The notes below the pieces were generated by a model. It worked only from the letters and a program-made list of their open reading frames with translations, had not been told where the DNA came from and made no database searches. Made by a program: the position numbers and the translations under genes. From the IMG/VR virus record IMGVR_UViG_2724679541_000003: a stretch of DNA of 13,325 bases. The stretch is one strand, 5' to 3'. Origin of the DNA: a virus (lineage: Duplodnaviria; Heunggongvirae; Uroviricota; Caudoviricetes). Positions 1 to 13,279 of the stretch are shown here, one piece after another (within the stretch, counting starts at the first letter, position 1; each line of letters begins with the position of its first letter).

Positions 1-233
1 AGCATATTGTGTTCACACTCCCCTGCCAGTACTGGTCCCTGGTGTTCCACAACCGGTGGTTACTGGCAGAGATGAGCCGCATTGCAGCGGATGTGATACT
101 GGAAATCTGCCATCAGGCAGATGTGGAGCCGGGGATATTCACGGTGATCCACACATGGGGTTACTTAACGTCAAACGCCCGAATTGAAGCCAAATCATCC
201 AGACTGCTCAGCTCCTCTTTCATCTCCCGCTGA
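1..233 (+). CDS. Possible 3' end of a convergent gene entering from upstream of the window (hypothetical protein, 5'-partial)
   Basis: The frame of ORF 9..233 is open from nt 3 (cat att gtg ...), so the ORF may continue beyond the window start. I do not recognise the product. Its last ~24 codons overlap the 3' end of the minus-strand tfa-like gene and are low-complexity (SSRLLSSSFISR). Lambda has leftward b-region genes convergent with the tail operon, so this orientation is plausible, but the coding status is unproven. Confidence 0.2.
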   Translation, partial: HIVFTLPCQYWSLVFHNRWLLAEMSRIAADVILEICHQADVEPGIFTVIHTWGYLTSNARIEAKSSRLLSSSFISR

Positions 234-724
234 CGGCGATAAATCTCATCGTTGCGATCGACCTGCGCCTGCACCATTGCTGCCGCCAGTTCTTCCAGTT
301 CCGGCATCGACAGTTTCACCTGCTGATTATCCGCATCACTCCACACCATATGTGTTTGTGCCGCGACAGATTTTGCCAGCATGACCACCGGGGACAGGCG
401 GGCCACTGACGAGGCGTCAGCGTTCCACGTGCGGCCGTTCCATTCAAACGTGAACGGCTTCGCCTCCTGTTCTGTGCGCCATGCTTCAATTTCCTGACGT
501 CTGGCCTCTCTGGCCGCTTCCAGCATTTCTGGTGTCACAGTGAATGGGGCTATCTCACCCCATTTGCCACTTTGCAGTTCCTGCCAGATTTGCTGACCCG
601 TCGGTGCAACATCATCAGCGGTGGCTGTGTAGGGAACTGCCTGGTCCCTGTCGTCAAAAAAAACGTCACAGTCTACTGCGCCACTTTCGGTATAACGGGG
701 ATTAATGATTTTTTTAATTTCCAC
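161..724 (-). CDS. Tail fibre assembly-like protein, possibly DUF4376-like C-terminal region (about 187 aa from a GTG start)
   Basis: ORF 161..784 with TAA stop at 161-163. Preferred start is GTG at 722-724, preceded on the minus strand by GAGGAA with 6-nt spacing, giving N-terminus (M)EIKKIINPRY. The alternative ATG at 782-784 lacks a good Shine-Dalgarno and would overlap the upstream ORF. The C-terminal half (FEWNGRTWNADASS ... charged helical tail) resembles phage tail-fibre-assembly / DUF4376-type proteins from memory only. Position directly downstream of stf matches lambda tfa. Confidence 0.55.
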   Translation of the reverse strand: MEIKKIINPRYTESGAVDCDVFFDDRDQAVPYTATADDVAPTGQQIWQELQSGKWGEIAPFTVTPEMLEAAREARRQEIEAWRTEQEAKPFTFEWNGRTWNADASSVARLSPVVMLAKSVAAQTHMVWSDADNQQVKLSMPELEELAAAMVQAQVDRNDEIYRRQREMKEELSSLDDLASIRAFDVK

Positions 725-734
725 GGTGCATTCC

Positions 735-1088
735 TCACGATGTGCGAATAAAAAGCCCGGGCATTGCGCCAGAGACATGTGCATCCGGCACCCCGGACAG
801 GGCGCAATATGACCCCGGTAATGAATGCTCTGAACATCCCGTAATGAAAAATTGTGGGGATGCTATATACGTTCCGGTGGGAGTACCGGGCACTGAAATC
901 CCCACCGGTCCCAGTCGTGAGCCTCTGTATGACTGCCCCCTGACAAGTCTGATGACTTTATCACCGTCAGCTTCTCCCTGGTACGCAGCAATAATCAGCC
1001 CGCCAATGTCAGGGTCTCCCCATCTGTTGCGGACAGAGCTCGCCACGATTCTGTAAATAATATCTTCTGTGGTTATATTTATTTTCAC
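735..1088 (-). CDS. Hypothetical 117-aa protein between stf and the tfa-like gene
   Basis: ORF 735..1088. The GTG start at 1086-1088 overlaps the stf TGA stop (1085-1087) as GTGA, which suggests translational coupling. The first ~55 aa (MKINITTEDIIYRIVASSVRNRWGDPDIGGLIIAAYQGEADGDKVIRLVRGQ) look protein-like; the C-terminal half is Pro/Gly/Ser-rich and may be non-coding read-through. No family recognised. Confidence 0.3.
   Translation of the reverse strand: MKINITTEDIIYRIVASSVRNRWGDPDIGGLIIAAYQGEADGDKVIRLVRGQSYRGSRLGPVGISVPGTPTGTYIASPQFFITGCSEHSLPGSYCALSGVPDAHVSGAMPGLFIRTS
763..808. repeat. Perfect 8-bp inverted repeat ATTGCGCC ... GGCGCAAT separated by 30 nt
   Basis: Plus strand 763-770 attgcgcc and 801-808 ggcgcaat are exact reverse complements; the spacer contains two CCGG motifs. 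It lies 39-85 nt upstream of the preferred tfa-like GTG start and spans the alternative ATG at 782-784. Confidence 0.5.
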
Positions 1089-2146
1089 CCAGTCAGTCTG
1101 GATATGGGCCAGTAGCGGTAGCGGGTGTGATAAATGGGGCCGTTAATGCCGTAAAAAGTAAGGGATTTGGCTCTGTACCGCGGTTCTGTTGTCTCAGGGC
1201 GTGCATCAGTCCACCGGATGCTGAGCACCCCTTCAAACCGTGTGTCGGGTATGATGATGCCGTAGGGGCCAGCAACGGAATATTCACCTGGCAGCGCATT
1301 CCTTACCCAGGCCAGGAAATCACTCTTAGTGTCAAAACGGATAACATCTTCAGGCAGAAAAGCACACCCAAAGCCGAATGCGCCGGGTATCGCCAGACGG
1401 CCTTTTGTCCGGTCGTAAATGTCGCTCTGTGCTTCCATCGTGGCCGCACTTTTCAGCCCCAGATTATCCCGGGACTTCTGTTGTGCCTTTTCGCCTGCTG
1501 CTGCGATTTCTGACAGATGGTTAGCCATTTTCAGAGTGCCGGTCAGCGCAGCATCAATGTCATTTTTGGCCTGTTCTGCTGCGCGGGCATAACCTGCGGC
1601 ATCCTGTGCGCTCTGTCCGGCTGCGGCTGCATTTGCTCCTGTGCTTGTCACATCTTCCGCAGTGGCCTTTCTGTCCTCAGCTGTGACGGTTGCATCCTGT
1701 CGGGCTTTCTCCGCAAAACGTTGTGCATCATCACGGGCCGTTGCGGCTGCCGCCACATCCTGCGCCGTCTGCTGTGCGTTTCCGGCTGCAGCCCCGGCAC
1801 TCTGCTGCGCCTGCGCCACCATTTCCTCAAAGCGCTTCATCACCTCCGGACGTAAATCACCATCCTTTGGTGCATTCAGAAACGCGTTCAGTGTCCCCGG
1901 TGCATCAGTCGGTGCCACATCAATATCCCCGACACGGGTTGGCTGCCAGCCGTTACAGTGAAGCGCAACCTCGTAATACCCCGGCTCAGCCTCAATCACA
2001 TAAGCACCGTTATTGTCCGTCACGCAAGTGGCAACAACGTGTGCCACAACGGTCGGACTGGTTCTTCTGGCCCGCAGTTCAATCGCACAATTTACGACAG
2101 GTTTACCCGCCCCATCTTTCAGTACACCTGAAATCTTTACTGCCAT
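1085..2146 (-). CDS. stf: Side tail fibre protein, Stf-like, short form (353 aa)
   Basis: N-terminus MAVKISGVLKDGAGKPVVNCAIELRARRTSPTVV closely matches the lambda Stf N-terminus as recalled (MAVKISGVLKDGTGKPVQNCTIQLKA...). ATG at 2144-2146 is preceded by GGGGTG. The ORF's upstream 14 codons (to 2188) run through the intergenic terminator hairpin and are rejected. An Ala/Gln-rich low-complexity middle is followed by a C-terminal ~110-aa domain I do not recognise. Confidence 0.8.
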   Translation of the reverse strand: MAVKISGVLKDGAGKPVVNCAIELRARRTSPTVVAHVVATCVTDNNGAYVIEAEPGYYEVALHCNGWQPTRVGDIDVAPTDAPGTLNAFLNAPKDGDLRPEVMKRFEEMVAQAQQSAGAAAGNAQQTAQDVAAAATARDDAQRFAEKARQDATVTAEDRKATAEDVTSTGANAAAAGQSAQDAAGYARAAEQAKNDIDAALTGTLKMANHLSEIAAAGEKAQQKSRDNLGLKSAATMEAQSDIYDRTKGRLAIPGAFGFGCAFLPEDVIRFDTKSDFLAWVRNALPGEYSVAGPYGIIIPDTRFEGVLSIRWTDARPETTEPRYRAKSLTFYGINGPIYHTRYRYWPISRLTG

Positions 2147-2153
2147 ATTCACC

Positions 2154-2183
2154 CCACAAAAAGCCCGCCTGAACCAGCGGGCT
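2154..2183 (-). terminator. Intrinsic terminator-like hairpin between lom and stf
   Basis: Minus-strand RNA: AGCCCGC-UGGUUCAG-GCGGGCU (7-bp stem, plus coordinates 2162-2168 / 2177-2183) followed by UUUUGUGGGG. It sits 27 nt after the lom stop and just upstream of the stf RBS. Confidence 0.5.
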
Positions 2184-2209
2184 GTCATAACACTGTGTTA
2201 CCTGGCTAA

Positions 2210-2809
2210 TCAGAACTTATAACCGACACCCACGATGAAACCGTCAGTGCGCCAGTCGCCACTGCCGGAACCTTCATAAGCAAGGTCAATGGCCACGGAT
2301 TCGGTCGGGTTAAACTGCACGCCAGCCCCCCACGCCAGAGACGTGTTGCTGTGGCGGTTGTCATCACTCCCGGTCAGCACATCGTGCGTTTTCCCCTTGT
2401 TGTCAGTTACGCGGAGATAATCCCCGGAGAAGGTCGACACACGGCTGTAAGCCACGCCCGCCATCGCATACGCGCTGAACCATTCATTCACGCGCACAGA
2501 CAGCCCCGCCATCACGCTGAACCAGCGGTTACGCACGGAATCCTCATGCCAGCGGGTATCACTGTAATGCGTTTTTTGCTCATCTTCAGCGTTGGCATAG
2601 CTGAATGACGTCACCAGCCCCAGCGTGTCCGTAAACTCATAACGGTATTTCACGTTAATCCCGTTCAGATCATCACTGCCGGGAGCGTTCGTCGAGGCAT
2701 GAAGATACCCCGCGCTCAGCGTGGACTGATGTTCAGACGCCCATGCAGGCGCACCGGATACAGCCAGACAGATGGCTGCGGACAAAATGGCAGCATAAAG
2801 TTTACGCAT
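2210..2809 (-). CDS. lom: Lom / Ail / PagC-family outer-membrane beta-barrel protein (199 aa), lysogenic-conversion moron
   Basis: Signal peptide [24 protein letters not shown]. The C-terminus [20 protein letters not shown] and the internal GINVKYRYE and SVMAG motifs match lambda Lom as recalled. RBS GAGAGG is 5 nt upstream of the ATG at 2807-2809. Position immediately after J is as in lambda. Confidence 0.9.
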
Positions 2810-2876: not shown

Positions 2877-5800
2877 TCAGCTGATACTGATACCTGCTGT
2901 GGATTTCTTCATCACAACAACCAGCAAATCGCTGATACTTGCTGTGGGATACCAGCCATTTACCAGCCATGCCGATACAGAAAACTCCAGCGTCATGTGA
3001 CCGTGACCGGCAGGCATATCAATAACACCCGTATATATCAGCGTATTATCCAGGGTCGTTCGGTTATAAATTTCAGCACCGTTTTTCTTCACTATCAGGC
3101 GGCATGACGAATAAATATTGTTATTCTTCCGCTCATGTTTAGCACCGCGAAACGCCACCGCGGGAATAACAATTTGCCGATCAAACGGCTGATCGTCATA
3201 AACCCTGACGGTAATGGTCCCTGATGGCCACCTCTCCGGTGCCCGGGAGTCCCGTGGGAAAGGTTTGCCCACTGTTTTAACGAGATCGCCTTCAATCTGG
3301 TTCGCGGACAATTTTCCCAGAACCCGACAGTTCTTATTAATCGTGACGTTGTTGAGCGTCCCGGAGTTCGCGTTCACGTTACCGCTGATATCGGCATTTT
3401 TCGCCGTCAGCCGTCCGCCAGGTGTCAGGGAAAATGCCGGAGGATTACCGCCGCTGGTAATGGTCGGAGCCGTCAGGCGTTTCAGGAACACGTCGTTCAT
3501 GAATATCTGATCGCCCTGACCAACAAACATCGGCTTTGTGTTGCCATTCGCAGGATTAATCATCGCAATCCTGTCTGCCGCCAGCAGCACCTGACTCTGC
3601 ATTCCTGCTGGCGTATTCTCAATACCGGCACCGATACCCGCAATATAAAGGCGTCCGTCCTTCATCTGTTGCAGCTTCACAGCCCACATGCTGTTCAGGT
3701 TATTATTTGTATCAACCTGAACTTTCTGTATCTGCTGGATTGCAGCACTCTGATTTTCCAGTTTTTTATTGACGGTTTGCGTGATTTCATTGCTGACATT
3801 CGTAATGGACGTCCTGATTTCAGTCAGGTCCGGCGCAAGCTGACCGTTATCAATCTGCGTCCACAACTCCTTGCCGAGATGCGTTTTATTGATCAACCCT
3901 TTATAAAAACTCAGATAACCTTCCGCATCATCGCTCGCCCGACCGACGGCCTCCACAAATGCCGATTTGCCAACGGTGTTCACACTGCGAACGTAAAAAT
4001 AATAATCATGGCCCGGCCTGATATTGATACTGGCGGCTATCCAGTACAGCGCCGTGCCAAGATAGCGGGCGCTGGTTTCAACCTGCCTGATATCCGCAAT
4101 CCGCTTTTCCGAAAACCAGAACTCAAACTGCACCGTCGGGTCATATACAGCCAGTTTCGGGACCACCGTTATCTGAAAATACCCCGGTATCAGTTCAATA
4201 GTGACAGGCGCTGCCGGTGCCGCAATCCGGAACGATACCGACGCCGGATCGCCCTGCTGCCCCCGGGCATTTACCGCCCGGACTGTCAGACTGTAATTCC
4301 CCAGCGCCAGCTGCCTGAAGCGGTATGTGGTTTCCGTCGTCCTGGCTGTGCTGACCAGCCGCTCACTGCCGTCGTCCGCTGCCACGGTCAGGCGAAGCAG
4401 GAAGCTCACACCCTTCACCACCTTCGGCGTGTCCCATCGCGCCAGCACCTGATATTCCCCGCTGTCTGCGGTGACTTCGGCGGTCAGATGCTGCACCGCT
4501 GGCGGCGTGACACCATTCACCGTGCCGCGCCGGTCACCGTCAAAGTGTGCCCCGTTATCCACGATGGCCTCTTTTTCCGGCACATGCTGCACGGCGGTGA
4601 TGGCATACGTGCCGTCGTCGTTCTCACGGATACTCACGCAGCGGAACAGGCGCTGGCGCAGCGTCGGCAGCTTCAGCCCCCACACGCTGTATTCTGCAAC
4701 GCCGTCAGGAACCCGGCTCACTTTCACCTTCACGCCGTCGGTGACGGACTGAACCTCCACGCTGACCGGATTGCCATTTCCGTCAACCAGGCTTATCAGC
4801 GTGGTACCGGAGGACGGCAGCGTGATTTCACGGTCGAGCGTCAGCGTCCGGGTCTGGCTGTTCACCGCCAGTACGCGACCACCGGTGCTGATACCGGCAT
4901 AATCATCATCGCAGATTTCAATGACATCACCCGGTACATGGCGAAGCCCTTCTGCGCCGACGCTGAAGTCCACGGTCTGCGTTTCCAGCAGTTCCGTTTT
5001 AATCAGCCACAGCCCGGCGCGGTGCGCCTGTCCCCGGCTGGTACAGCCAAAGGCATCCATCTTCGTGACGTTACGACCGTAACGGACAATGGCCTGCGTG
5101 TCCTCCACAAGCTCTGTCGCCGTCTCATGACCGTTGTCCGGATCAATCCAGTTCACCTCAACGACATTATGGCGGTCCTTCAGGGCGCTGAAGCTGTAGC
5201 GGAACGGCGCGCCATCATCCGGCATCACCACATTACTGCGGTTATAGGTCCACACTTTATCCGACGGTCGGTCCTGCACGAACGTCAGCGTCTGCCCGTT
5301 CCATACCGGCATACAGCGCATCGCCGAGCAGAAATCACTGAGAACATCCCACGCCTTACGCTGTGTGGTCAGGTAAGCGTTACAGGTGATGCGCGGCTCC
5401 GTGCCGCCAAATCCGTCCGGCACTGACTGGTCGCAGTACTGGCCGATGACATACAGCGCCCATTTGTCCACATCTGCCGCACCAAGACGTTTCCCCATGC
5501 CGTAGCGCGGATGAGTGAGCATGTCCCACAGACACCAGGCCATGTTGTTGCTGTATGCTGGCTTAAGCGTTCCGTCCCAGATACCGCTGTATTGCCGCGT
5601 CTGCGGGTTATAGTTCGACGGCACCTGCAGAATGCGCCCGCGAAGATGATAATTGCGACTCACCTGCTGGTTACCGAACTGCTCTGAATCCACCTGCACG
5701 CCGACCAGCGCCGTGTTCGGGTAGCACTGTTTCACATCGATGATTTCGGTGTACGACGACCAGAGCGTTTTGTTCTGCAGCTGGTCTGTGGTGCTGTCCG

Positions 5801-6356
5801 GTGTCATCCTGCGCATCCGGATATTAAACGGGCGCGGCGGCAGGTTACCCACCACCACCGAGGCCAGATACTGCGAAGTGGTTTTGCCCTTAATGGTGAT
5901 GTCTTTTTCCGTCACCCAGCCACCGTTACGCTGTATCTGAACCAGCAGGCGGACTTCCGACGGATTCCGGTCCCCCTTTGAGGTGGTTTCCACCAGTGCC
6001 TGCACACCGAAGGTCAGGCGCAGACGATCAATGTTTGCCGACGTGATGGTCCGGGTGATCGGCGTGTCGTATTTCACTTCCGTACCCAGCACAGTCTCTG
6101 AGCCGGAAGATTCAAACCCCTCCGGCGGTGTCTGCTCCTGCTCGCCGGCGCGGAACACCACCGTAACACCGGAAAAGTTTGTCTTCCCCTCGCTATCCAG
6201 GACCGGCGTACCGTTCAGCAGCACGCTTTTTAATCCATCCACCGGACCGTCAACCGGCCCTTCGCTGATGGCATCAATCACACTCAGCAACTGCGTGGAT
6301 TTCAGGTTGTCCTTCGCTTCGCGCGGGGTATGCCCCTTACTGCTGCCTTTACCCAT
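2877..6356 (-). CDS. J: Central tail fibre / host specificity protein J (1159 aa)
   Basis: N-terminal ~850 aa is near-identical to lambda gpJ as recalled ([34 protein letters not shown] ...), including fibronectin-III-like segments. ATG at 6354-6356 with GGAG 8 nt upstream; TGA at 2877-2879. The C-terminal ~250-300 aa diverges from lambda. Confidence 0.95.
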
Positions 6357-6365
6357 TCCTCACGC

Positions 6366-6398
6366 TCCATAAACGACAAAACCGCCCGCAGGCGGTTT
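6366..6398 (-). other. GC-rich hairpin in the I-J intergenic region (weak terminator or attenuator-like)
   Basis: Minus-strand RNA: AAACCGCC-UGCG-GGCGGUUU (8-bp stem, plus coordinates 6379-6386 / 6391-6398) followed by UGUCGUUUAU, then the J RBS. The U-tract is interrupted, so termination is doubtful. Confidence 0.3.
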
Positions 6399-6416
6399 CA
6401 CATGAAACATTTTGCA

Positions 6417-7058
6417 TCAGCGACCAATCACCACAACCTGACCACCATCCCCTTCGTCTGCCGTGCTGATCTCCTGAGATACCACCCGCGACCCCACGCG
6501 CATTTCACCGTACAGAACAGGCAGAACATTGCCCTGGGCAACCATGTTATCCAGTGAGGAGAAACAGGTGTTCTGTTTGCCGTTATCCGTTGTCTGTGTA
6601 CGGGGAGTTCTGGCTTTCGGTGCCAGCATCTGTGCAACACCGCCAAGCGTCATACTGGCACCGAGAGAAAACAGCAGATTACTCGCCATAATTCCTACCC
6701 CCGGCATCCATATAGCAACCGCCATAACAGCTGCCCCCAGCACCGCCTGAAACACACCGCCACTTTTAGCTCCCACCAGACGCGGTACTATGTGGATCAC
6801 TGCACCATTTGCCAGCGGCTCATTAAGACGGGCAGACAATTCGGTTTCACCTGCATCACGCCCGGCAATGCGCACCTGATACCAGCCGTCACTCAGTTTC
6901 TGACGAAACGCCGGGAGCTGTGTGGCCAGTGCGCGGATGGCTTCAGCCCCCGTTTTCACACGAAGGTCGATGCGGCGGCCAAATCGTTGCAAATCCCCGT
7001 AAAGGCAGATGCGTGCCATTCCCGGTGACGCCAGAGGGAGTGTGTGCGTCGCTGCCAT
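6417..7058 (-). CDS. I: Tail assembly protein I (213 aa)
   Basis: MAATHTLPLASPGMARICLYGDLQRFGRRIDLRVKTGAEAIRALATQLPAFRQKLSDGWYQVRIAGRD and the C-terminus NGKQNT.FSSLDNMVAQGNVLPVLYGEMRVGSRVVSQEISTADEGDGGQVVVIGR match lambda gpI as recalled. The 5' end overlaps the K 3' end by 103 nt. Confidence 0.9.
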   Translation of the reverse strand: MAATHTLPLASPGMARICLYGDLQRFGRRIDLRVKTGAEAIRALATQLPAFRQKLSDGWYQVRIAGRDAGETELSARLNEPLANGAVIHIVPRLVGAKSGGVFQAVLGAAVMAVAIWMPGVGIMASNLLFSLGASMTLGGVAQMLAPKARTPRTQTTDNGKQNTCFSSLDNMVAQGNVLPVLYGEMRVGSRVVSQEISTADEGDGGQVVVIGR

Positions 7059-7699
7059 TTGTCGGTATACCTCTCTCGTTTACTCAGTTGTTCAGGAATA
7101 TGGTGCAGCAGCTCACCATCGCCGCAGTAAATGGCGGCATGATTCGGCACCGATGAACCAAAACAGCACAGCAGCACATCGCCCGGTTGTGCTGATGACA
7201 ACGGCACCTGATACAGCCCTGTGGCCTCCAGATTATCCAGATAGAGATTCTGACCGTGACGCCACCAGTCATCCCCGCGATGAAAATCCGGCATCTCAAT
7301 CCCCGCCAGATGATAAGCATCCCGGAACAGCGTGTAACAGTCCGTCACCCCGTGCTCAAAGCGCCGCCCGGTGAGATGCGGCACACAGCGGAACTTGTGA
7401 ATCGTCCCCCGGCAGACCAGCCACCACGGCAAATCACTCTGCACCTGCAGCCGCCGGTCAGCCTCACTCAGCCAGGGCAGACCACCGGGATGACTGTGGA
7501 CCAGTGCCACAATCTCACCCTGCATTTGTGCCCGCAGCCAGTCCTCCGGAGCCATCCGGAACCGTTCCTCCGGCTCACCGGAGATATTCTCGCTGGGAAG
7601 ATACCTGTCTCCCTCCGGCGTTCTCACCACGAAGCCACACGACTCCGCTGGCGCACATCGCCGGGCGTGCGCCAGAATCGCTGATTCTGTCTGTGTCAT
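6956..7699 (-). CDS. K: Tail assembly protein K (247 aa as called here): N-terminal JAB/MPN metalloprotease-like domain plus C-terminal NlpC/P60-like domain
   Basis: Near-identical to lambda gpK as recalled. JAMM motif H-S-H-x7-S-x2-D is present (EIVALVHSHPGGLPWLSEAD); the NlpC/P60-type Cys (GVTDCYTLF) and downstream His residues (NHAAIYCGDGELLHH) are present. Start chosen at ATG 7697-7699 (MTQTESAILAHARRC), 5 nt after the L stop; the ORF-track start at 7963 would overlap L and is rejected. Confidence 0.9.
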   Translation of the reverse strand: MTQTESAILAHARRCAPAESCGFVVRTPEGDRYLPSENISGEPEERFRMAPEDWLRAQMQGEIVALVHSHPGGLPWLSEADRRLQVQSDLPWWLVCRGTIHKFRCVPHLTGRRFEHGVTDCYTLFRDAYHLAGIEMPDFHRGDDWWRHGQNLYLDNLEATGLYQVPLSSAQPGDVLLCCFGSSVPNHAAIYCGDGELLHHIPEQLSKRERYTDKWQRRTHSLWRHREWHASAFTGICNDLAAASTFV

Positions 7700-7703
7700 G
7701 GAT

Positions 7704-8402
7704 TTACTGAGAAAGTTTATTGATGGAAAGGAAACCGCCGAAATTACCGGTATTGTTGCGCAACTCACACCCGCGCATACACTTGCTGCATTTGTCCTTC
7801 CGGATATCCGTTGTTGGTTTGTCGAACTCGTCAGCCACTGCCCTGCCCGTGTAACCACACTCATCAGAACGGTAAGTCCACATACAGGTATTCGCCAGCA
7901 TGATACGCCCCGGGAAAACCGCGCCATCCGTCTCCGTTGGTGTGGCCAGCACAAAAGAGGCACTGACCGCGCTCAGTTCGCTGCACTGCTCGATGCGCCA
8001 GCGGCTGATCACCTCCTGTTCCGGATCGGCGTCGCTGTTTCCGTTGACGAAGTTCACCGCATCCAGAAAACGGGCGTAAACCTTACGCCGGACCACCGTT
8101 CCGCCGACCAGACTCTGCAGATCTTCCGCCATCCCGGTGACCATGCCGTGCAGGTTAGAGACCGTCAGTGTCGGACGGGCAGCACAGCCCCTGCCGTTCA
8201 GTTCAAACCCCGACCCCTGAATGGGGTATGCCTGATACTGCCGCCCCTGCCAGGTGACCGGCTCACCTTTTTCGTTCTGCTCATTACAGAAAAAATAACG
8301 CTCACCACCGACCTCTGTCAGATCGATTTCCCAGAGCTCCACCCGGGCTGACTGCTCCGCACGGGTGCATTCATTCAGTGTTTCCTGCCGGATATCCTGC
8401 AT
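7704..8402 (-). CDS. L: Tail tip protein L (232 aa)
   Basis: Near-identical to lambda gpL as recalled (MQDIRQETLNECTRAEQSA ... NFGGFLSINKLSQ). The C-terminal Cys cluster (CSKCMRGC plus upstream Cys) is conserved. The ATG overlaps the M stop by 1 nt. Confidence 0.95.
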   Translation of the reverse strand: MQDIRQETLNECTRAEQSARVELWEIDLTEVGGERYFFCNEQNEKGEPVTWQGRQYQAYPIQGSGFELNGRGCAARPTLTVSNLHGMVTGMAEDLQSLVGGTVVRRKVYARFLDAVNFVNGNSDADPEQEVISRWRIEQCSELSAVSASFVLATPTETDGAVFPGRIMLANTCMWTYRSDECGYTGRAVADEFDKPTTDIRKDKCSKCMRGCELRNNTGNFGGFLSINKLSQ

Positions 8403-8731
8403 CAGTTCACCACCTGTTCAAAATCGGCCGTTACAGTCACCCATAACGCCCCCACGCTTGCCGACCATTTACGACAAACCACCCTGATCAGTTTCCAGTC
8501 ATAAGGTGGCGTCCACTGAAATGCGCGGACGCCACCGTGCCGTTCCAGAAAGGCTTTTAAAGATGGGTGTTCACCTTTACGAACACGTATCGTCACGCTG
8601 TAAGTCGACAACTGGTTATTCAGTCCCGCCGCACGACGCTGTTCATAACCATCGCCCAGCTTCACTGTCACCACTTTCGGCTCTGATACCACATTCATAT
8701 CCGGGCGCACTTTCCAGTGAAACGTCTCCAT
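8402..8731 (-). CDS. M: Tail tip protein M (109 aa)
   Basis: Matches lambda gpM as recalled (M.TF.WKV.P ... GDGY.QR..AGLN ... WTPPY.W ... FEQVVN). The ATG at 8729-8731 overlaps the H stop (TAATG). Confidence 0.95.
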   Translation of the reverse strand: METFHWKVRPDMNVVSEPKVVTVKLGDGYEQRRAAGLNNQLSTYSVTIRVRKGEHPSLKAFLERHGGVRAFQWTPPYDWKLIRVVCRKWSASVGALWVTVTADFEQVVN

Positions 8732-11700
8732 TACCGGTATGCTCCACTTAACCGGCCACCATCACGGGCCTGCTGTTGCATAAAGTCCGCGGCCGCTTTT
8801 TTCCCGAGGTCATAAACCACCTTCAGGGCAGCCGGACCTATCTGCCCGTTCGTGCCGTCGTTATTGATCTCAATGTTGTACTGCGGGGCAAACATCACCA
8901 TGCCTGAACCACCAGTATCCGCCACAACCCCCAGCTTACCATCAGCACCGCGACGCAGTGGCAGAATGGCTTCAGGTCCCGCTTCCCCCATCACACCCGC
9001 GCCTTTTGCAAAAGCAAAAAACGTCGGACGGTTAACCACCGTGCCACTGTAGCGACTCAAATCAGCAGACTGGTAAACACCGCCATCAGCATTAGTCGTG
9101 AAGCCGAATAAAGAACCGACGCCCTTTACCGCCTGCATCATGGCCATCTGTGCCATAATTCTGGCCATATCTGACAACAGGGAAGAGGTGAAGGATTTAA
9201 AATTCAGCTTACCGGTGGTACAGAATGTCGCCAGTGCATTACCGGCACTGCTGAATGCCACTGTAAACATCTGTTCTGCCGTTCCCGCCGCATTATCCGC
9301 ATCCGCCGTAAAATTCTGAAACGCCCGCATGGCACCGTTTTTCCAGTCGCCCTGCGCCACTTCCAGTTCCTGCCAGTAGCGTTTGTTTTCATTCAGTTGT
9401 CGCTTCAGGCTCCCCTTCAGCACCTCCTCAGCCCTCCGGTAGTCCTCCGTCCCGTAAGTGCCTTTCTGGCGACTGTCATTCTCAAGCTGTTGCAACTGTT
9501 GCCGGTATTCCTGCCGGATGCGCAACTGTGCCTGGTAGCGCTGCCGCTGCTTATCCCCCATACCTGCAGTGGCAATATCCAGATTGTGCTGCTCACGCAG
9601 TGCACGTTCTTTGTCTGCCAGCTGGCTGGTCAGCTGAACCGTTTTTTTTCTCAGGTCGTTAAGCGCTGTCTGTTTCTGCAGCTCCTGCTGTTTCACATCC
9701 AGCAGCGTCAGCGCCTGAATCAGCTCATTCTTACGGGCCAGCACACTCTTTTCATCTGCCGTCAGCTTTTTCCCGTCCAGGTCGCTGATGCGCTGCTGCA
9801 GGGCCAGAAGCTGTTTATGCGCTTCAGTCATCCTTTCAGTGGCAATGCCTGCTGACTGTCTGGCAGCAGCAATCTGCCCTTCCACCTGTGCCTGCTGCTG
9901 ACTGTACTGCAGCAATAACCGGGTGGCCTCATCATTACGGGTTGCCCGTGTATTTTTCTTAATGGCTTTTTCGTAACGTTCATTTTCACGCTGTATCGCC
10001 GCATCCCTGACAGCCTGGTCGGCGTACTGCATGGCATTAATACGCGCAATTTCCCGCTGATGTCGTGCAGCTTCCGTTTCATTCATCCGGTTCAGCGCGG
10101 CATTTTCAGCATTCCGGCGTTTCTGTTGCTCCTGGTAATTCCGTTCTGCCTGCGCTTTTGCATCCTGCAAATCCTTCCGGCGTTTTTTCTCCTGAAGATC
10201 GTTAAGACGCTGCTGATCGTACTCCACCTGTGTGGAGGCGTTTGTCCACGGATATTTTTTCGCGCGCTGAATTTTTTCCTGTAACGCATCAATCTGCGCA
10301 TCCAGCGAGTCTTCACGACCAATATTCATGGCCGCATCCCAGAACTGCTTCCACCAGTCAGACAAGGTTTGCAGCGTACTACCCAGCGCATTGAGATTAT
10401 TATCAATATCAGATGTGCGTTTACCGGTTTCCTCTGCCAGCGCAGACATGGCGATCCGGGCCGCATCACTGGACCGCCCCTGCTCCCCAAGGACGCGTAT
10501 CTGCTCAAGCTGAGTGGCATTCAAAAAATGCAGCGCATTGTCCAGCGCCTTCGCGGCATTTACAGGATCATCCTTCAGCCGCTTAAACTGATTTATGGTA
10601 TCGCTGACCGACTGGCCAACCGATCGCTCCATCTGTGCGGCAGCTTTCGCCACCATACCAATATCGTTTCCATGAAATGCCCCACTGCCCACCACCTGTG
10701 CCAGCGCACCGGCTGCCGCATGTTGCGTGATACCATTCCCGGATATGGCCCGGCTGAGTTTCCACAACTGCCCGACAGTGACACCGGCATAATGTCCCGT
10801 CAGCGCCAGCTGACGGTTAAATTTCTCGCCCTCCTTCCGGCCGTCATGCCAGGCTTTACCCAGACCCAGGACCGCCGCGACAAGTCCGCCAATAACGCCG
10901 CCAGTCATCATGCCTTTCGGCGACATCAGTGCGCCTGTCCATCCGGCACGGTTAGCCAGCGTTATCCCGGATCCCCTCAGCGCACCAAAATTGCCTCGCG
11001 CCATCTGACTGATTAACACCCCCAGCTCCCGCCGGGCTGCCGCACTTTTCAGCCCCAGCGAATGTGTGGCTTTTCCTGCCCGCTCCATTTTGCGGATATA
11101 CACTTCTGCAGCACTGCTTACCCCCAGCTGAGCCGCCCTGGCGCGAAGCAACTCAGAAGACGACAGATTCTGGCGGGTTGCCTGCTCTTTAAGCTGGCGG
11201 ATAAACGCCGCTTTCTGCCGGGTGGCCTGTTCCTCTGCCTGCGTCAGGGCACGGGTTTTCGCCGTGATCTCCGAAATCAGCGCCAGATAATCCTGCTGAC
11301 CAACCCCGCCACTGTTTCTGGCCTGTCGGATCTGCTGCTGAATACGCTGTAATTCCTGAAGCCCCGCACCGGCCTGTTTCACACTGTCAATCTGGCGATA
11401 AAAGGCGGCAGCCGCTTTATCCTGCGCCTCCGCCAGTGCCCTGGCCTGCGCCTGTTCCTCGCGCATTTTCTGATTCAGGGCATCCACGCGCAGACGGGTT
11501 TGTTCCACCTCACGGGCCATGCGTTCATGAGCCCGTGCATTCTTCTCCACCGTCTGCGCATGGGCTGATGCTGCTGTTGCAGCCGAAGAAGCCGCCTGCA
11601 TTGTCTGCCGGGCCGCCTGAGTCTGACGCTCCATAAAACGCTGCATACGGGCAGAAGACCGTTCTGCATCGCTGGCTGCACCATTCAGAAGGTTTTTGAT

Positions 11701-11772
11701 ACGGGGAATTTCATTTTTAAACTCTGCCGCATCAATCCCCAAATCAATGACCAGGTTGGCTATCTGGTCCAT
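8731..11772 (-). CDS. H: Tail tape measure protein H (1013 aa from preferred start; 1023 aa if the upstream ATG at 11802 is used)
   Basis: The C-terminus INNDGTNGQIGPAALKVVYDLGKKAAADFMQQQARDGGRLSGAYR matches the lambda gpH C-terminus as recalled. A long Gln/Arg/Glu/Ala-rich helical region and Gly-rich hydrophobic segments are typical of tape measure proteins. Preferred start is ATG 11770-11772 (MDQIANLVIDLGIDAAEF, aligning with lambda MAEPVGDLVVDLSLDAARF), preceded by GGAGG with 8-nt spacing. Confidence 0.9.
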   Translation of the reverse strand: MDQIANLVIDLGIDAAEFKNEIPRIKNLLNGAASDAERSSARMQRFMERQTQAARQTMQAASSAATAASAHAQTVEKNARAHERMAREVEQTRLRVDALNQKMREEQAQARALAEAQDKAAAAFYRQIDSVKQAGAGLQELQRIQQQIRQARNSGGVGQQDYLALISEITAKTRALTQAEEQATRQKAAFIRQLKEQATRQNLSSSELLRARAAQLGVSSAAEVYIRKMERAGKATHSLGLKSAAARRELGVLISQMARGNFGALRGSGITLANRAGWTGALMSPKGMMTGGVIGGLVAAVLGLGKAWHDGRKEGEKFNRQLALTGHYAGVTVGQLWKLSRAISGNGITQHAAAGALAQVVGSGAFHGNDIGMVAKAAAQMERSVGQSVSDTINQFKRLKDDPVNAAKALDNALHFLNATQLEQIRVLGEQGRSSDAARIAMSALAEETGKRTSDIDNNLNALGSTLQTLSDWWKQFWDAAMNIGREDSLDAQIDALQEKIQRAKKYPWTNASTQVEYDQQRLNDLQEKKRRKDLQDAKAQAERNYQEQQKRRNAENAALNRMNETEAARHQREIARINAMQYADQAVRDAAIQRENERYEKAIKKNTRATRNDEATRLLLQYSQQQAQVEGQIAAARQSAGIATERMTEAHKQLLALQQRISDLDGKKLTADEKSVLARKNELIQALTLLDVKQQELQKQTALNDLRKKTVQLTSQLADKERALREQHNLDIATAGMGDKQRQRYQAQLRIRQEYRQQLQQLENDSRQKGTYGTEDYRRAEEVLKGSLKRQLNENKRYWQELEVAQGDWKNGAMRAFQNFTADADNAAGTAEQMFTVAFSSAGNALATFCTTGKLNFKSFTSSLLSDMARIMAQMAMMQAVKGVGSLFGFTTNADGGVYQSADLSRYSGTVVNRPTFFAFAKGAGVMGEAGPEAILPLRRGADGKLGVVADTGGSGMVMFAPQYNIEINNDGTNGQIGPAALKVVYDLGKKAAADFMQQQARDGGRLSGAYR

Positions 11773-12468
11773 AACGCACACCTCCGGAAATACCTTCCCC
11801 AAGATGCATCAGTTCTTCGTCCGTTCGCTCCGGTATCCCGTTCTCTTCCGGTAAAAGGCTGAAATCAGCCACCGCAGCATCGCTGCTGCCGGACACCATT
11901 CTCACGATCAATGCCTTCAGCGAGGCAAACTGCGCATCCATCCACACATCACTGAAGCTCTGCATCCGGAAATAATCGCCCCACTCACCAAGCTCAGTGG
12001 CCGACATATCCGACAGCATCCGCCGCCAGTCTGCCCGCCGGAACTCCCGGGCAAGCCGCATGACAAACTGCATTTCCCGCGTCAGGACTTTTCCGGCGTC
12101 AGCGCCTCATGATCATCATCCCCGGCATTCTCAATGGTCCCCATACCGCTCAGCGACAGAACCCTCTCCGCCCCCGCGCCCAGCGCATCATACGACCATG
12201 TTGTCATAATGGATGCGCAAAGCGTCTCAACATCCTGAGACTGCTCAGCATTCCACAGTGAGCGGGAAACCAGCCAGGCATTGATATCCATTCCCATACG
12301 CAGAAAAGCAATCTGTCGTTCAGCCTCCGGCAGTTCTCCCTCTTGTGCATCAAACTTTGCCGTTCGCTGCTGAACAAACGTCAGATATTCAATTCTCTGC
12401 AGCCCGGACAGCTCACTGAGCACCACGGACTGTTTTTCATAATTAAACGTATCCTGTTTCAGAAACAT
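11744..12468 (-). CDS. T: Tail assembly chaperone GT fusion, made by programmed -1 ribosomal frameshift from G into the T frame
   Basis: The T frame (ORF 11744..12073) is -1 relative to G and is open upstream to 12106, overlapping the last 8 codons of G. A slippery-like heptamer lies in the overlap (12088-12094). Arrangement is as in lambda G/GT. The T segment MQFVMRLAREFRRADWRRMLSDMSATELGEWGDYF ... follows the junction. Confidence 0.65.
12082..12468 (-). CDS. G: Tail assembly chaperone G (about 128 aa)
   Basis: MFLKQDTFNYEKQSVVLSELSGLQRIEYL resembles the lambda gpG N-terminus as recalled (MFLKTESFEHNGVTVTLSELSALQRIEHL). Preferred start is ATG 12466-12468 with GGAG 6 nt upstream. The ORF-track TTG start at 12486 lies inside the upstream terminator U-tract and is rejected. 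TGA at 12082-12084. Confidence 0.85.
   Translation of the reverse strand: MFLKQDTFNYEKQSVVLSELSGLQRIEYLTFVQQRTAKFDAQEGELPEAERQIAFLRMGMDINAWLVSRSLWNAEQSQDVETLCASIMTTWSYDALGAGAERVLSLSGMGTIENAGDDDHEALTPEKS
12088..12094 (-). promoter_or_regulatory. Candidate -1 frameshift slippery site G-GAA-AAG (lambda has G-GGA-AAG)
   Basis: Minus-strand sequence GCC GGA AAA GUC in the T frame and CCG GAA AAG UCC UGA in the G frame. The A-site Lys AAG can re-pair on AAA; the P-site Glu GAA re-pairs on GGA with one G-U pair. It sits 2 codons before the G stop. Confidence 0.5.
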
Positions 12469-12484
12469 CATGTTCTCCGGATGC

Positions 12485-12507
12485 AAAAAGCCCCGGATAA
12501 CCGGGGC
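12485..12507 (-). terminator. Rho-independent terminator-like hairpin between V and G
   Basis: Minus-strand RNA: GCCCCGG-UUAU-CCGGGGC (7-bp GC stem, plus coordinates 12490-12496 / 12501-12507) followed by UUUUU (plus 12485-12489), then the G RBS and start. Confidence 0.55.
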
Positions 12508-12526: not shown

Positions 12527-13267
12527 TTATGGTGCGCTGACGGTCACCGCAGCCACTGCCACAAACTCTCCGTCAGAGGTCATGCCCACGATGCTGACAC
12601 TGCCCTGCTTCACGCCTTTCACCGTGGCCACAAGCCCGCTCAGGGTCACCGAAGCAGTCTGAGGATCTGACGAATGCACACTGATCGCTTTGTCACTGGC
12701 CCCGTCAGGTTTTACTGTAAAGGTCAGTGTGGTGGTTGCTCCCGCTTTGACACTGACAGATGCCGGTGCCACCGTCAGTCCGGTAACACCCACGGTTTCA
12801 GTGCCTTCCTCTGCCAGATACGGACGCCCCACACCGCTGATTTTCACAGTGCGGGTCATCACGTCTTTTGAGGCAATGGTTTTACCCAGTGAGCTCAGCC
12901 AGCCGCGGAAAACATCAACAGTGCCGTTGGGATATTTGATACGAAACGCGCAGACTTCACCGGAGTCGAACAACTGAACCAGTTTTTTCTGCCCGCTGTC
13001 ACCCGGACGCCAGGCCAGCGTCGCCGAAGTATCACCAACGGATTTCTGCCCCTGGGTTGTCGTTTTCCAGTCTGCATCTTCATCATCGAGATAAGTGTCA
13101 TCTTCTGCATCAGCGGTCATTTCGCCAGGTTGCAGATCCTTCACCATCGCAAGACGCAGCCAGTCAGTGTCCGACAAAGGGTTCGCAAACGCATCGCCGT
13201 TGCCGGTATACATCCAGAACGTCGTCCCCGCACCTTTCGTCTTTGCCAGTGGATTTGGTGTGGTCAT
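12527..13267 (-). CDS. V: Major tail tube protein V (246 aa) with C-terminal Ig-like (Big_2-type) domain
   Basis: Similar to lambda gpV as recalled (.KGAGTT.W.Y.G.GD..ANPLSD.DW.RLA.VKDL.PGE ... YLDDEDADW ... GTVDVFRGW). Preferred start is ATG 13265-13267, 5 nt after AAGGAGG; this gives 246 aa, the same length as lambda V. TAA at 12527-12529. Confidence 0.95.
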   Translation of the reverse strand: MTTPNPLAKTKGAGTTFWMYTGNGDAFANPLSDTDWLRLAMVKDLQPGEMTADAEDDTYLDDEDADWKTTTQGQKSVGDTSATLAWRPGDSGQKKLVQLFDSGEVCAFRIKYPNGTVDVFRGWLSSLGKTIASKDVMTRTVKISGVGRPYLAEEGTETVGVTGLTVAPASVSVKAGATTTLTFTVKPDGASDKAISVHSSDPQTASVTLSGLVATVKGVKQGSVSIVGMTSDGEFVAVAAVTVSAP

Positions 13268-13272
13268 TACCA

Positions 13273-13279
13273 CCTCCTT
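13273..13279 (-). promoter_or_regulatory. Shine-Dalgarno AAGGAGG for V
   Basis: Plus strand cctcctt at 13273-13279 gives AAGGAGG on the minus strand, 5 nt upstream of the V ATG. Confidence 0.6.

Follow-up and report, generated by a model that had tools for sequence, protein, structure and literature searches.

Two overlapping tail genes in the window, the whole 13,325-nucleotide stretch of Caudoviricetes DNA that we analysed (IMG/VR record IMGVR_UViG_2724679541_000003), are best explained as encoding a 247-residue K protein with two predicted peptidase domains and a three-part I protein, made as a precursor that the JAB domain of K would clip. We give this reading as a whole a probability of roughly 0.6. 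The pair is an ordinary, very common lambda-type tail-assembly unit, already known and holding no new biology: the pairing of the protease with a ubiquitin-like protein was published in 2003-2006, and the idea of cleavage dates from 2006. The gene layout is as follows.

K gene: 6956-7699, minus strand, 247 amino acids (248 codons including the stop), from the open reading frame and its translation
L stop codon, spacer and K start: 7697-7706, minus strand, from the sequence
Codons 1-48 of K: 7556-7699, minus strand, the stretch absent from the 199-residue lambda annotation
Met49 and the GGAGG before it: Met49 at 7553-7555 and GGAGG at 7567-7571, minus strand, the start used in the lambda annotation, spacing 11 nt
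I gene: 6417-7058, minus strand, 213 amino acids counted from the first ATG, from the open reading frame and Pfam Lambda_tail_I
K/I overlap: 6956-7058, minus strand, 103 nt, I being read in the -1 frame relative to K
Alternative I starts: ATG of Met14 at 7017-7019 and GTG at 6957-6959, minus strand, from the sequence

Every feature that an earlier note on this DNA had described is present where it was placed. The K frame opens directly behind L, as that note said: the TAA of L (7704-7706) and a 4-nt spacer, ATCC, precede the K ATG (7697-7699), and translation from there begins MTQTESAILAHARRC. Inspection of the sequence before this ATG found no Shine-Dalgarno motif, and K is therefore probably translated by coupling to L. 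The L-K spacer measures 4-5 nt in almost all of 85 relatives, and K also starts near the L stop codon in a distant clade (45-49% identity, 239-242 amino acids). Taking the first ATG past the upstream stop gives exactly 247 amino acids in 96 loci; this form dominates among K homologues and is the one RefSeq calls in the nearest E. coli genome. The earlier note had proposed judging the long form by the conservation of its first 48 codons, and the outcome was in its favour: across 85 distinct sequences these codons show a dN/dS of 0.26-0.29 and zero stops, against 2.0-2.1 in the other frames, where the controls contained 250 and 86 stops. From these sequence comparisons we conclude that the 247-residue K is a real protein and that codons 1-48 are coding. 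A longer open frame of 335 codons, stretching K into L from a GTG at 7963, was rejected as a chance frame, most relatives having an in-frame stop there. The L-K and K-I fusion proteins in databases were set aside as sequencing or pseudogene artefacts; they are mostly singletons, and frame errors are visible in the K-I fusions inspected.

The K protein carries the following predicted domains and residues.

JAB/JAMM (MPN+) metalloprotease domain: 7388-7693, minus strand, K residues 3-104, Pfam Prok-JAB PF14464
Glu19, the upstream JAMM glutamate (ESCG): 7643-7645, minus strand, from the alignment
HSHPGGLPWLSEAD, the H-S-H-x7-S-x2-D of the JAMM motif: 7457-7498, minus strand, K residues 68-81, from the translation
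NlpC/P60 (C40) cysteine peptidase domain: 7028-7369, minus strand, K residues 111-224, Pfam PF00877
NlpC/P60 catalytic residues: Cys121 at 7337-7339, His187 at 7139-7141 and His199 at 7103-7105, minus strand, from the alignment

The N-terminal half of K is, as judged from profiles and a structural model, a complete predicted JAMM/JAB zinc metalloprotease domain. When residues 1-110 were checked against JAB profiles, Prok-JAB matched residues 3-104 over profile positions 3-112 of 114 (E 4e-14; 52.9 bits against a cut-off of 25), and this full match needs the N-terminus. The 199-residue form reaches 23.6 bits, under the Pfam cut-off, on positions 63-112 only, and residues 1-48 alone score 23.2 bits on positions 3-41; the claim that the JAB domain is complete only in the 247-residue form thus holds. 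The intact JAMM motif reported before is likewise there, the full pattern E-x(n)-H-S/T-H-x7-S-x2-D falling on Glu19, His68-Ser69-His70, Ser78 and Asp81. In an alignment of 50 sequences, with identity down to 42%, Glu19, H68, S69, H70 and D81 show no variation, and conservation of S78 reaches 90% or more. Of 107 full-length cluster representatives, 91 have an E-x-C-[GA] motif (median position, residue 21), and the JAMM motif occurs in 91-99 of 107 distant representatives. PDB 2KKS aligns with K residues 7-105, its EACG lying opposite the Glu19 motif. The AlphaFold2 model of K (pLDDT 90.1) places a helix at 3-15 and strands at 21-27 and 30-36 within the JAB core, with pLDDT 90-96 over the block of residues 1-40 and 73 over 41-50. 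Its best Foldseek matches are Pyrococcus furiosus JAMM1 alone and bound to the ubiquitin-like SAMP2 (5LD9/5LDA), the TM-score on the 5LDA target being 0.66 over 110 columns of a 130-residue target, an alignment length that K needs residues 1-48 to reach. Rpn11 and CSN5 are further matches, and the NCBIfam desampylase model NF041370 matches weakly (31 bits against a cut-off of 130).

The earlier note was right that the lambda reference annotates K at 199 residues from an internal Met. In NC_001416/J02459, K is annotated at 14276..14875 (199 amino acids) and I at 14773..15444, and the upstream 47 codons lie in a different frame. Behind C14266 these records lack a G that is present in nearly all the re-sequenced lambdas we compared, and once this G is restored lambda K also has 247 residues, its ATG falling at 14134 and the internal start at 14277 in the corrected numbering. 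By this comparison the short lambda K traces to one base missing from the reference record, so that the deposited sequence itself imposed the 199-residue call instead of leaving it to a free choice of start. The variant '14266 C>CG' has been listed for lambda gt10 with no remark about K (PMC6760142), and several re-sequenced lambda derivatives still copy the 199-residue call. The literature searched, which left out Casjens and Hendrix 2015, yielded no paper that gives lambda K as 247 amino acids or faults the reference there. An HHpred survey saw only a peptidase domain in the '199 residues' of gpK (PMC7291167), and the JAMM paper worked from AAA96551 (PMC300881). Anyone using NC_001416, J02459 or a 199-residue gpK entry has a K that is without the catalytic Glu of its first protease domain.

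Could K nevertheless start at Met49, the 48 upstream codons being an untranslated spacer and the JAB similarity a truncated relic? This reading draws on the GGAGG 11 nt before Met49, whereas the upstream ATG has no such motif, on the records of lambda, DE3 and lambda imm434, all of which give K 199 residues (the last with an annotated ribosome binding site before Met49), and on several large clusters of 199-residue proteins. We nevertheless regard it as extremely improbable: the skipped codons are under purifying selection, free of stops in all 85 sequences, and contain the invariant Glu19; the product would miss the Pfam JAB cut-off; the distant clade has Ile (FRISD) in place of Met49; and the lambda call depends on a reference without the G found in nearly all other lambdas compared. 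Neither the peptide MTQTESAILAHAR nor initiation at 7697-7699 would be expected from a start at Met49 only. Production of both forms, the long one through coupling to L and the short one from Met49 with an active NlpC/P60 and a dead JAB domain, is improbable to a lesser degree, as GGAGG is a strong site whose 11-nt spacing is long yet usable and Met49 is kept throughout the lambda clade. Against two forms, the conserved peptide GEPE also accounts for GGAGG, Met49 is not kept in the distant clade, and we found no report of two K products.

The second domain of K is, from its profile match and conserved residues, a predicted NlpC/P60 cysteine peptidase. The NLPC_P60 profile matches residues 111-224 over positions 1-105 of 105 (E 1.6e-12; 47.7 bits against a cut-off of 23), and the Cys/His residues noticed earlier are present as Cys121, His187 and His199, invariant in the alignment of K homologues. 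Foldseek aligned this part with the Spr/MepS, LytE and Acd autolysins. Since NlpC/P60 domains are typically peptidoglycan endopeptidases, as in the Spr/MepS and LytE matches, and the literature names no lambda enzyme that breaches peptidoglycan, K might be a virion-borne cell-wall hydrolase whose NlpC/P60 domain acts at DNA injection. We consider this very improbable, given that mass spectrometry of lambda virions did not detect gpK, that no tail structure resolves it, and that the F-pyocin homologue is likewise missing from particles.

The gene order was confirmed, with I between K and J. The two genes are overlapping neighbours in every relative examined, a range that runs from E. coli to Comamonas (38% identity in K), and 4409 of the 5426 complete E. 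coli genomes contain the pair. Their overlap had been said to match that of lambda, and NC_001416/J02459 indeed gives the same length, 103 nt, a figure that presupposes the first ATG as the I start. Public records also place the start at Met14, at a TTG or at a GTG, which shortens the overlap to 64, 37 or 4 nt respectively. The codon-1 ATG is kept in 85 of 85 sequences and the codon-14 ATG in 84 of 85, Met14 being missing in E. albertii; the overlap, read in the I frame, gives a dN/dS of 0.106, and read in the K frame one of 2.16. Late I starts are frequent in automatic annotation and cut into the ubiquitin-like domain. We considered a programmed frameshift from K into I and dismissed it, because 6956-7058 contains no X XXY YYZ slippery heptamer in the K frame, the start codon of I is conserved and clades differ in the length of the overlap (103, 58 and 8 nt). 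The G/T pair of the same operon does use a programmed -1 frameshift; K/I differs from it in being without a slippery heptamer and in I having its own start. A promoter and terminator scan of 6200-8000 gave nothing beyond chance.

The I protein is made up of three parts, a predicted beta-grasp domain (approximately residues 14-96), a Gly-rich hydrophobic two-helix segment and a plug domain.

Predicted ubiquitin-like (MoaD/ThiS/SAMP-type) beta-grasp domain of I: 6768-7019, minus strand, residues 14-97, Pfam PF06805
Gly96 of I: 6771-6773, minus strand, invariant glycine ending the ubiquitin-like domain
Gly100-Gly101 of I (the GG of VGAKSGG): 6756-6761, minus strand, from the translation
Gly/Ala-rich hydrophobic segment of I: 6624-6755, minus strand, residues 102-145, from the translation and the alignment with 8IYK chain I
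C-terminal plug domain of I: 6420-6623, minus strand, residues 146-213, forming a trimer in the tail-tip lumen

Lambda_tail_I matches residues 14-97 (E 8e-24; 84.3 bits against a cut-off of 23.8), and PDB 8IYK chain I, lambda gpI, matches with 86% identity (E 4e-108). The Pfam matches of I and of both K domains lie far outside what chance would give. A PSI-BLAST link of I to the beta-grasp fold, together with a functional link between K and I, is published (PMC1779556). The AlphaFold2 model of I has a pLDDT of 43 overall and 55-66 over residues 14-94 and gives a weak indication only, its confidence being low with a shallow alignment; all of its top 50 Foldseek matches are beta-grasp proteins, led by MoaD, SAMP1 and CysO, at E values of at least 0.013. 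ThiS Pfam matches were found in 2 of 12 members, reaching E 0.08. PDB 25vf_9 and 9l9p_A are also homologues of I. The earlier description of a Gly-Gly and a hydrophobic stretch behind this N-terminus is accurate, VGAKSGG occupying residues 95-101 and the hydrophobic stretch 102-145, and its beta-grasp reading agrees with what is published; the conserved glycine, however, is Gly96 and not the Gly-Gly. Together with P92, G96 is invariant in 12 relatives with identity down to 29%, and hhalign sets it, weakly (MoaD probability 26%), opposite the penultimate glycines MoaD G80 and ubiquitin G75. Gly100-Gly101 is confined to the lambda clade and a single relative from Comamonas, the Erwinia/Rahnella clade being without it. 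A Gly-Gly terminus of the ubiquitin, SAMP or MoaD kind was not found at the aligned position, where the pair is Gly96-Ala97 (Gly-Ala or Gly-Ser in relatives). In lambda the hydrophobic segment forms helices H1/H2, for which membrane insertion is predicted (PMC11101478, PMC10721106). Residues 126-212 correspond to the whole length of the 90-residue gpI chains of 9E7M with almost no differences.

Structures and proteomics fit a loss of the ubiquitin-like domain of I in tail-tip maturation. Models of lambda gpI begin at residue 101 in the closed tail (PMC11101478) or at 134/135, and in work on lambda and F-type pyocin the mature tip shows I only from about residue 101, as a trimer that plugs the tip and holds the tape measure protein by its C-terminus. 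Mass spectrometry of virions gave a single gpI peptide, whose 9.87% coverage is matched by the C-terminal 22-mer alone (residues 202-223). Missing cryo-EM density of the I N-terminus could also arise from a domain that is flexible but has stayed attached. Lambda virions lack gpK, which tip assembly requires, just as its F-pyocin homologue PA0639 is essential for tips and missing from particles. [quoted passage not shown] That region persists in tips stalled by deletion of the tube, Dit or tape-measure genes despite an intact K homologue gene, so K is not sufficient, and the cleavage is either gated or the work of something else. Recombinant PA0640 produced alone loses its N-terminal region to E. 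coli proteases.

We propose that I would be made as a precursor in which the ubiquitin-like domain may keep the hydrophobic plug part soluble or shield the tip. The JAB domain of K would clip I after Gly96 or Gly101 during tip maturation, in the manner of a desampylase or deubiquitinase, and K and the released ubiquitin-like domain would then leave. With its full length, two intact predicted active sites and a gene beside that of the substrate, K is the obvious candidate protease. The literature searched held no biochemical data on gpK and no experiment in which K cuts anything. In a more specific version, the JAB domain would act as the protease of a 'proteolytic checkpoint' at the tip, removing the I prodomain only once tape measure, Dit and tube have docked; to this we give a little less than even odds. 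Were this version borne out, K/I would be a case of a virus-encoded deubiquitinase-like enzyme and a ubiquitin-like domain that together switch assembly in the tails of the lambda type and in F-type pyocins.

A serious though unlikely contender is that something other than the JAB domain removes the ubiquitin-like domain, be it the NlpC/P60 domain, a protease of the host or a further phage protease, or that the ubiquitin-like domain just stays flexible, with K serving as a chaperone or processing something else, for instance the tape measure protein (gpH to gpH*). The pyocin results lend themselves to this, host proteases sufficing when PA0640 is expressed alone and the N-terminal region staying in stalled tips though the K homologue gene is intact; moreover, the literature names no protease that cuts gpH, and papain-like folds also serve as deubiquitinases (PMC1779556). 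The JAMM catalytic residues, however, are invariant family-wide, which argues for catalysis. Also on the side of the JAB domain, a JAB protease with a glycine-ending ubiquitin-like protein is a recurrent unit, exemplified by PfJAMM1-SAMP2, the top structural match, and K and I keep their adjacency and overlap in every relative examined. The role of gpK is among the last open points of lambda tail assembly, and we favour cleavage of I by its JAB domain.

Among known systems, phage lambda gpK/gpI has the same order H-M-L-K-I-J and the same 103-nt overlap, with K 93.4% identical in DNA and I 86% in protein; lambda I has 223 residues and the I described here 213, the 10 fewer residues lying in the hydrophobic linker. 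Lambda gpK is tail tip assembly protein K, UniProt P03729, and gpI is tail tip assembly protein I. The TAPK/TAPI pair of Iyer, Burroughs and Aravind 2006 (PMC1779556), described from lambdoid and T1-like phages as a JAB plus NlpC/P60 protein beside a ubiquitin-like tail assembly protein, has identical architecture and neighbourhood and differs in nothing substantive; those authors proposed that the JAB domain frees the ubiquitin-like domain at its C-terminal glycine. In the P. aeruginosa F-type pyocin (PA0639/PA0640), likewise, the mature tip shows the I homologue with its C-terminal part only, although this is a tailocin and not a phage, and its sequence is only distantly related. Archaeal JAMM1/SAMP (5LD9/5LDA) has in common with K the E...HSH...S..D motif; SAMP is a MoaD-like beta-grasp partner with a glycine end, as is predicted for the domain of I. 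JAMM1, however, is a single-domain enzyme that cuts isopeptide or linear bonds of free modifiers, while the JAB domain of K is fused to NlpC/P60; and SAMP is a free modifier, whereas the ubiquitin-like domain here would form the N-terminal end of the precursor of a structural protein. The MPN+ deubiquitinase Rpn11 and deneddylase CSN5 have the fold and catalytic motif of K (PMC300881) but act in large lid complexes with MPN- partners and without a fused cysteine peptidase. Finally, the Spr/MepS, LytE and Acd autolysins resemble the C-terminal domain of K in fold and Cys-His-His triad; they are secreted peptidoglycan hydrolases, whereas K is without an evident signal peptide, cytoplasmic and not part of the virion.

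A lambda-type tail module fills the window on the minus strand.

Tail-module genes of the window
12527-13273, minus strand: V
12082-12486, minus strand: G
11744-12073, minus strand: T
8731-11802, minus strand: H
8402-8731, minus strand: M
7704-8402, minus strand: L, stop codon TAA
6956-7699, minus strand: K, 247 residues, ATG at 7697-7699, TGA at 6956-6958
6417-7058, minus strand: I, 213 residues, ATG at 7056-7058
2877-6356, minus strand: J
2210-2809, minus strand: lom
within 161-2188, minus strand, after lom: a tail-fibre N-terminal gene, then a DUF4376 gene

The K start codon lies 4 nt past the TAA of L, directly after that gene as the earlier note had it, and the encoded protein opens with MTQTESAILAHARRC. 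A Shigella flexneri chromosome encodes a protein identical to this K, the E. coli O121 sequence (NZ_CP119441.1) matches the window at 99.1% across the K/I DNA, and of 5426 complete E. coli genomes 4409 carry the pair, the median copy number being three per genome.

Elsewhere in the module, the tape measure protein H has 1023 residues against 853 in lambda, which predicts a proportionally longer tail. The side-fibre region (161-2188, minus strand) holds a 367-aa protein whose sole domain is the prophage tail fibre N-terminal one, and a 207-aa DUF4376 protein; the stf/tfa side-fibre arrangement of lambda is much longer. J is intact in the window (an ORF of 1159 codons) and in E. coli O121, the closest E. 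coli relative of this prophage (positions 1665-1904 of that comparison stretch, L146), gpJ is annotated as a pseudogene with an internal stop. At the end of G (about 12085-12100, minus strand) the sequence reads CCG GAA AAG TCC TGA and T goes on in the -1 frame, so that the G/T slip site is likely GGAAAAG rather than the GGGAAAG of lambda; the latter heptamer occurs once in the window, at another place and on the opposite strand. The 60-nt spacer between I and J contains a GC-rich stem-loop (AAACCGCC-UGCG-GGCGGUUU, 6375-6398, minus strand) followed by a U-rich tract. The 76-nt stem-loop region has a folding energy of -27.3 kcal/mol (z = -2.9), and in phage 21 a terminator is annotated at this I-J position, within the late operon.

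K matches the Pfam family Prok-JAB over residues 3-104 (52.9 bits, cut-off 25; positions 3-112 of the 114-position profile), followed by a full-length match to NLPC_P60 at residues 111-224. The JAMM motif, HSHPGGLPWLSEAD, occupies residues 68-81, and was rightly described as intact: in an alignment of 50 homologues from two clades, with identity down to 42%, the invariant residues include Glu19, Cys21 (E-x-C-G), His68-Ser69-His70 and Asp81, as well as the Cys121, His187 and His199 expected of an NlpC/P60 enzyme. Residues 7-105 align with a solved JAB protein, PDB 2KKS, pairing ESCG with EACG and HSHP with HSHP. The AlphaFold2 model built from the same alignment (mean pLDDT 90.1, pTM 0.84) finds its best solved-structure matches in Pyrococcus furiosus JAMM1, both free and in complex with SAMP2, a ubiquitin-like protein; Spr/MepS and LytE, which are NlpC/P60 enzymes, rank lower, and Rpn11 and CSN5 come after them. 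The archaeal desampylase family of NCBIfam matches K weakly. By motif, profile and fold, K is thus a JAMM protein, and its JAB domain is predicted, by analogy, to act like an archaeal desampylase or an Rpn11-type enzyme.

That K starts at the ATG beside L, giving a 247-residue protein with a complete JAB domain, is our main reading, at a probability of about 0.95. It rests on five independent lines: selection, a catalytic residue, profile score, fold and a conserved start. Pooled pairwise dN/dS over 85 distinct 247-codon genes was 0.26-0.29 for codons 1-48, 0.12 for codons 49-110 and 0.085 for codons 111-213; the first 144 nt gave 2.0 and 2.1 in the other two frames, which contain 250 and 86 stop codons there against none in the K frame. 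The first 48 codons are therefore under purifying selection. They also encode the JAMM glutamate, residue 19, and among 107 full-length representatives of 50%-identity K clusters the H-S/T-H...S/T-x-x-D motif is retained in 99 and the upstream E-x-C-G/A in 91 (median residue 21). The earlier note's claim that only the longer form completes the JAB domain holds: that form matches nearly the full profile, the 199-residue form scores 23.6 bits, under the cut-off (profile positions 63-112 only), and residues 1-48 alone score 23.2 bits (positions 3-41). Clusters of 199-residue proteins carry NlpC/P60 as their sole precomputed Pfam domain. In the model, a helix (3-15) and two strands (21-27, 30-36) of the extension are core elements of the fold, as judged from pLDDT of 90-96 over residues 1-40 and 73 over 41-50. 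Finally, in a distant clade (Erwinia, Rahnella, Hafnia, Pantoea, Enterobacter; 45-49% identity, 239-242 aa) the K start likewise lies just past the L stop codon, and Ile stands at the position of the lambda clade's Met49, where the 199-residue form begins.

No Shine-Dalgarno sequence precedes the upstream ATG and the 4-5 nt spacer between L stop and K start is conserved, from which we infer that K is translated by coupling to L. In the nearest E. coli genome, RefSeq already gives K 247 aa, as a 'C40 family peptidase'. The K frame stays open for 88 codons upstream into L (7700-7963, minus strand) in the window's lineage; a 335-codon ORF from GTG 7963 was considered as a longer K and rejected as a chance extension, interrupted by a stop in most relatives.

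The lambda reference (J02459/NC_001416) does annotate K at 199 aa, as stated in the earlier note (14276..14875, with I at 14773..15444). There, 47 upstream codons (ATG 14134) are out of frame with annotated K, and a TGA interrupts the K frame six codons ahead of the annotated Met. Alignment shows GAGGCT at 14262-14267 where the window, phage 21 and mEp332 have GAGGCGT or its equivalent; the gap, after C14266 (1263-1268 of our lambda comparison stretch, L001), corresponds to about 7561-7567 (minus strand) of the window. Restoring the G gives lambda a K of 247 aa from 14134, and the 199-aa annotation and split K arise because this one G is missing. Every other identical-flank sequence of the first comparison set reads GAGGCGT. 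The G is carried by re-sequenced lambdas (LC730321, 48,503 bp; PV340536; KT232076), the DE3 prophage, lambda imm434, imm21, h434 imm21 and HK629/HK630, and by at least 18 contigs from unrelated assemblies (Shewanella, Pseudomonas, Bradyrhizobium, Neobacillus and others), most of which differ from the reference by zero mismatches and exactly one gap. In the MutaMouse lambda gt10 transgene, '14266 C>CG' is among the constitutional differences from the reference (PMC6760142). Two later records read as the reference does: one is flagged UNVERIFIED, and the reference-identical coordinates of the other suggest a reference-guided assembly. On sequences bearing the G, K is annotated at 199 aa (DE3, imm434), 211 aa (KT232076) or 247 aa (PV340536, phage 21). 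Resequencing reports give '+G at 14,266' among the differences, placing it between L and K as intergenic. We found no paper in the literature drawing its consequence for K.

Lambda DNA forms many low-coverage contigs in unrelated bacterial assemblies, most without one mismatch to the reference, some near genome length (48,542, 48,442 and 48,392 bp; Shewanella, Pseudomonas) and others shorter (Bradyrhizobium, Streptomyces, Kitasatospora and others). These are presumably contaminants from the laboratory or spiked-in DNA. In mEp332 (PV340541.1; about 607-616 of its stretch, L003) a G-run is one base short (GGAGGGG) near K codon 29, through either a sequencing error in the homopolymer or a genuine frameshift, and K is annotated at 233 aa from a different start.

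K and I share 103 nt (6956-7058), with I in the -1 frame relative to K, as first noticed, and the lambda annotation gives an equal overlap. Within it, the K frame has a dN/dS of 2.16, compared with 0.106 in the I frame for I codons 1-33 and 0.063 for codons 14-33. This constraint shows that the overlap is real and that translation of I begins no later than Met14. All 85 sequences have the first ATG, and 84 of the 85 have Met14; in the E. albertii relative without Met14, the whole domain could come only from the first ATG. The distant clade starts I at the equivalent of Met14, preceded by GGAGG, with a 58-nt overlap, and the Comamonas genes overlap by 8 nt, so that 103 nt, though the preferred reading for the lambda clade, is no family constant. 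The overlap contains no slippery heptamer. For the nearest E. coli genome, PGAP gives I a length of 180 aa (GTG start, 4-nt overlap; L146 1062-1604, corresponding to window 6957-7058, minus strand), and elsewhere it gives 191 aa (TTG) or 200 aa (Met14). The two shortest calls, 180 and 191 aa, leave out the initial strands of the ubiquitin-like domain, and the codons so lost show strong purifying selection when read in the I frame (dN/dS ~0.06).

Compared with lambda gpI, I shows 86% identity and has a hydrophobic linker 10 residues shorter; it matches Lambda_tail_I (Pfam) at residues 14-97. Iyer and colleagues used iterated profile searches to connect its N-terminus with ThiS/MoaD, and described a conserved C-terminal glycine in the domain (PMC1779556). 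Our own tests are weaker than that link, yet agree with it: the AlphaFold2 model is poor (pLDDT 43), and its 50 best Foldseek matches are all beta-grasp proteins, with MoaD, SAMP1 and CysO at the top. The published beta-grasp reading of the N-terminus is probable. The earlier emphasis on Gly100-Gly101 does not hold, since that pair is absent from the distant clade. Across 12 relatives, with identity down to 29%, the invariants at the domain end are Pro92 and Gly96, and hhalign pairs ...VIHIVPRLVG96 with ...VAFFPPVTG80 of MoaD and with ...LHLVLRLRG75 of ubiquitin.

During tip maturation, K would clip this domain off I. The N-terminal domain of lambda gpI is 'unseen' in the literature, and gpK has not been detected in virions; virion mass spectrometry gave one gpI peptide at 9.87% coverage, a figure compatible only with the C-terminal 22-mer (residues 202-223). 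Tips require PA0639, the gpK homologue of the P. aeruginosa F-type pyocin, which is not present in the particles. Taken with the JAB fold and the invariant active site, these facts make clipping by K the best-supported mechanism, though at even odds or slightly less; removal of the domain by some protease is probable. Against K as that protease, the N-terminal region of an I homologue persists in stalled tips despite an intact K-homologue gene, recombinant PA0640 (the gpI counterpart) loses this region to host proteases, and the NlpC/P60 domain has no assigned role.

The K/I finding is real, was correctly interpreted and is already known; we add only the explanation of lambda's 199-aa annotation, the correction to Gly96 and the mis-started I annotations. 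Set beside the published TAPK/TAPI pair, K/I of the window is an ordinary member.
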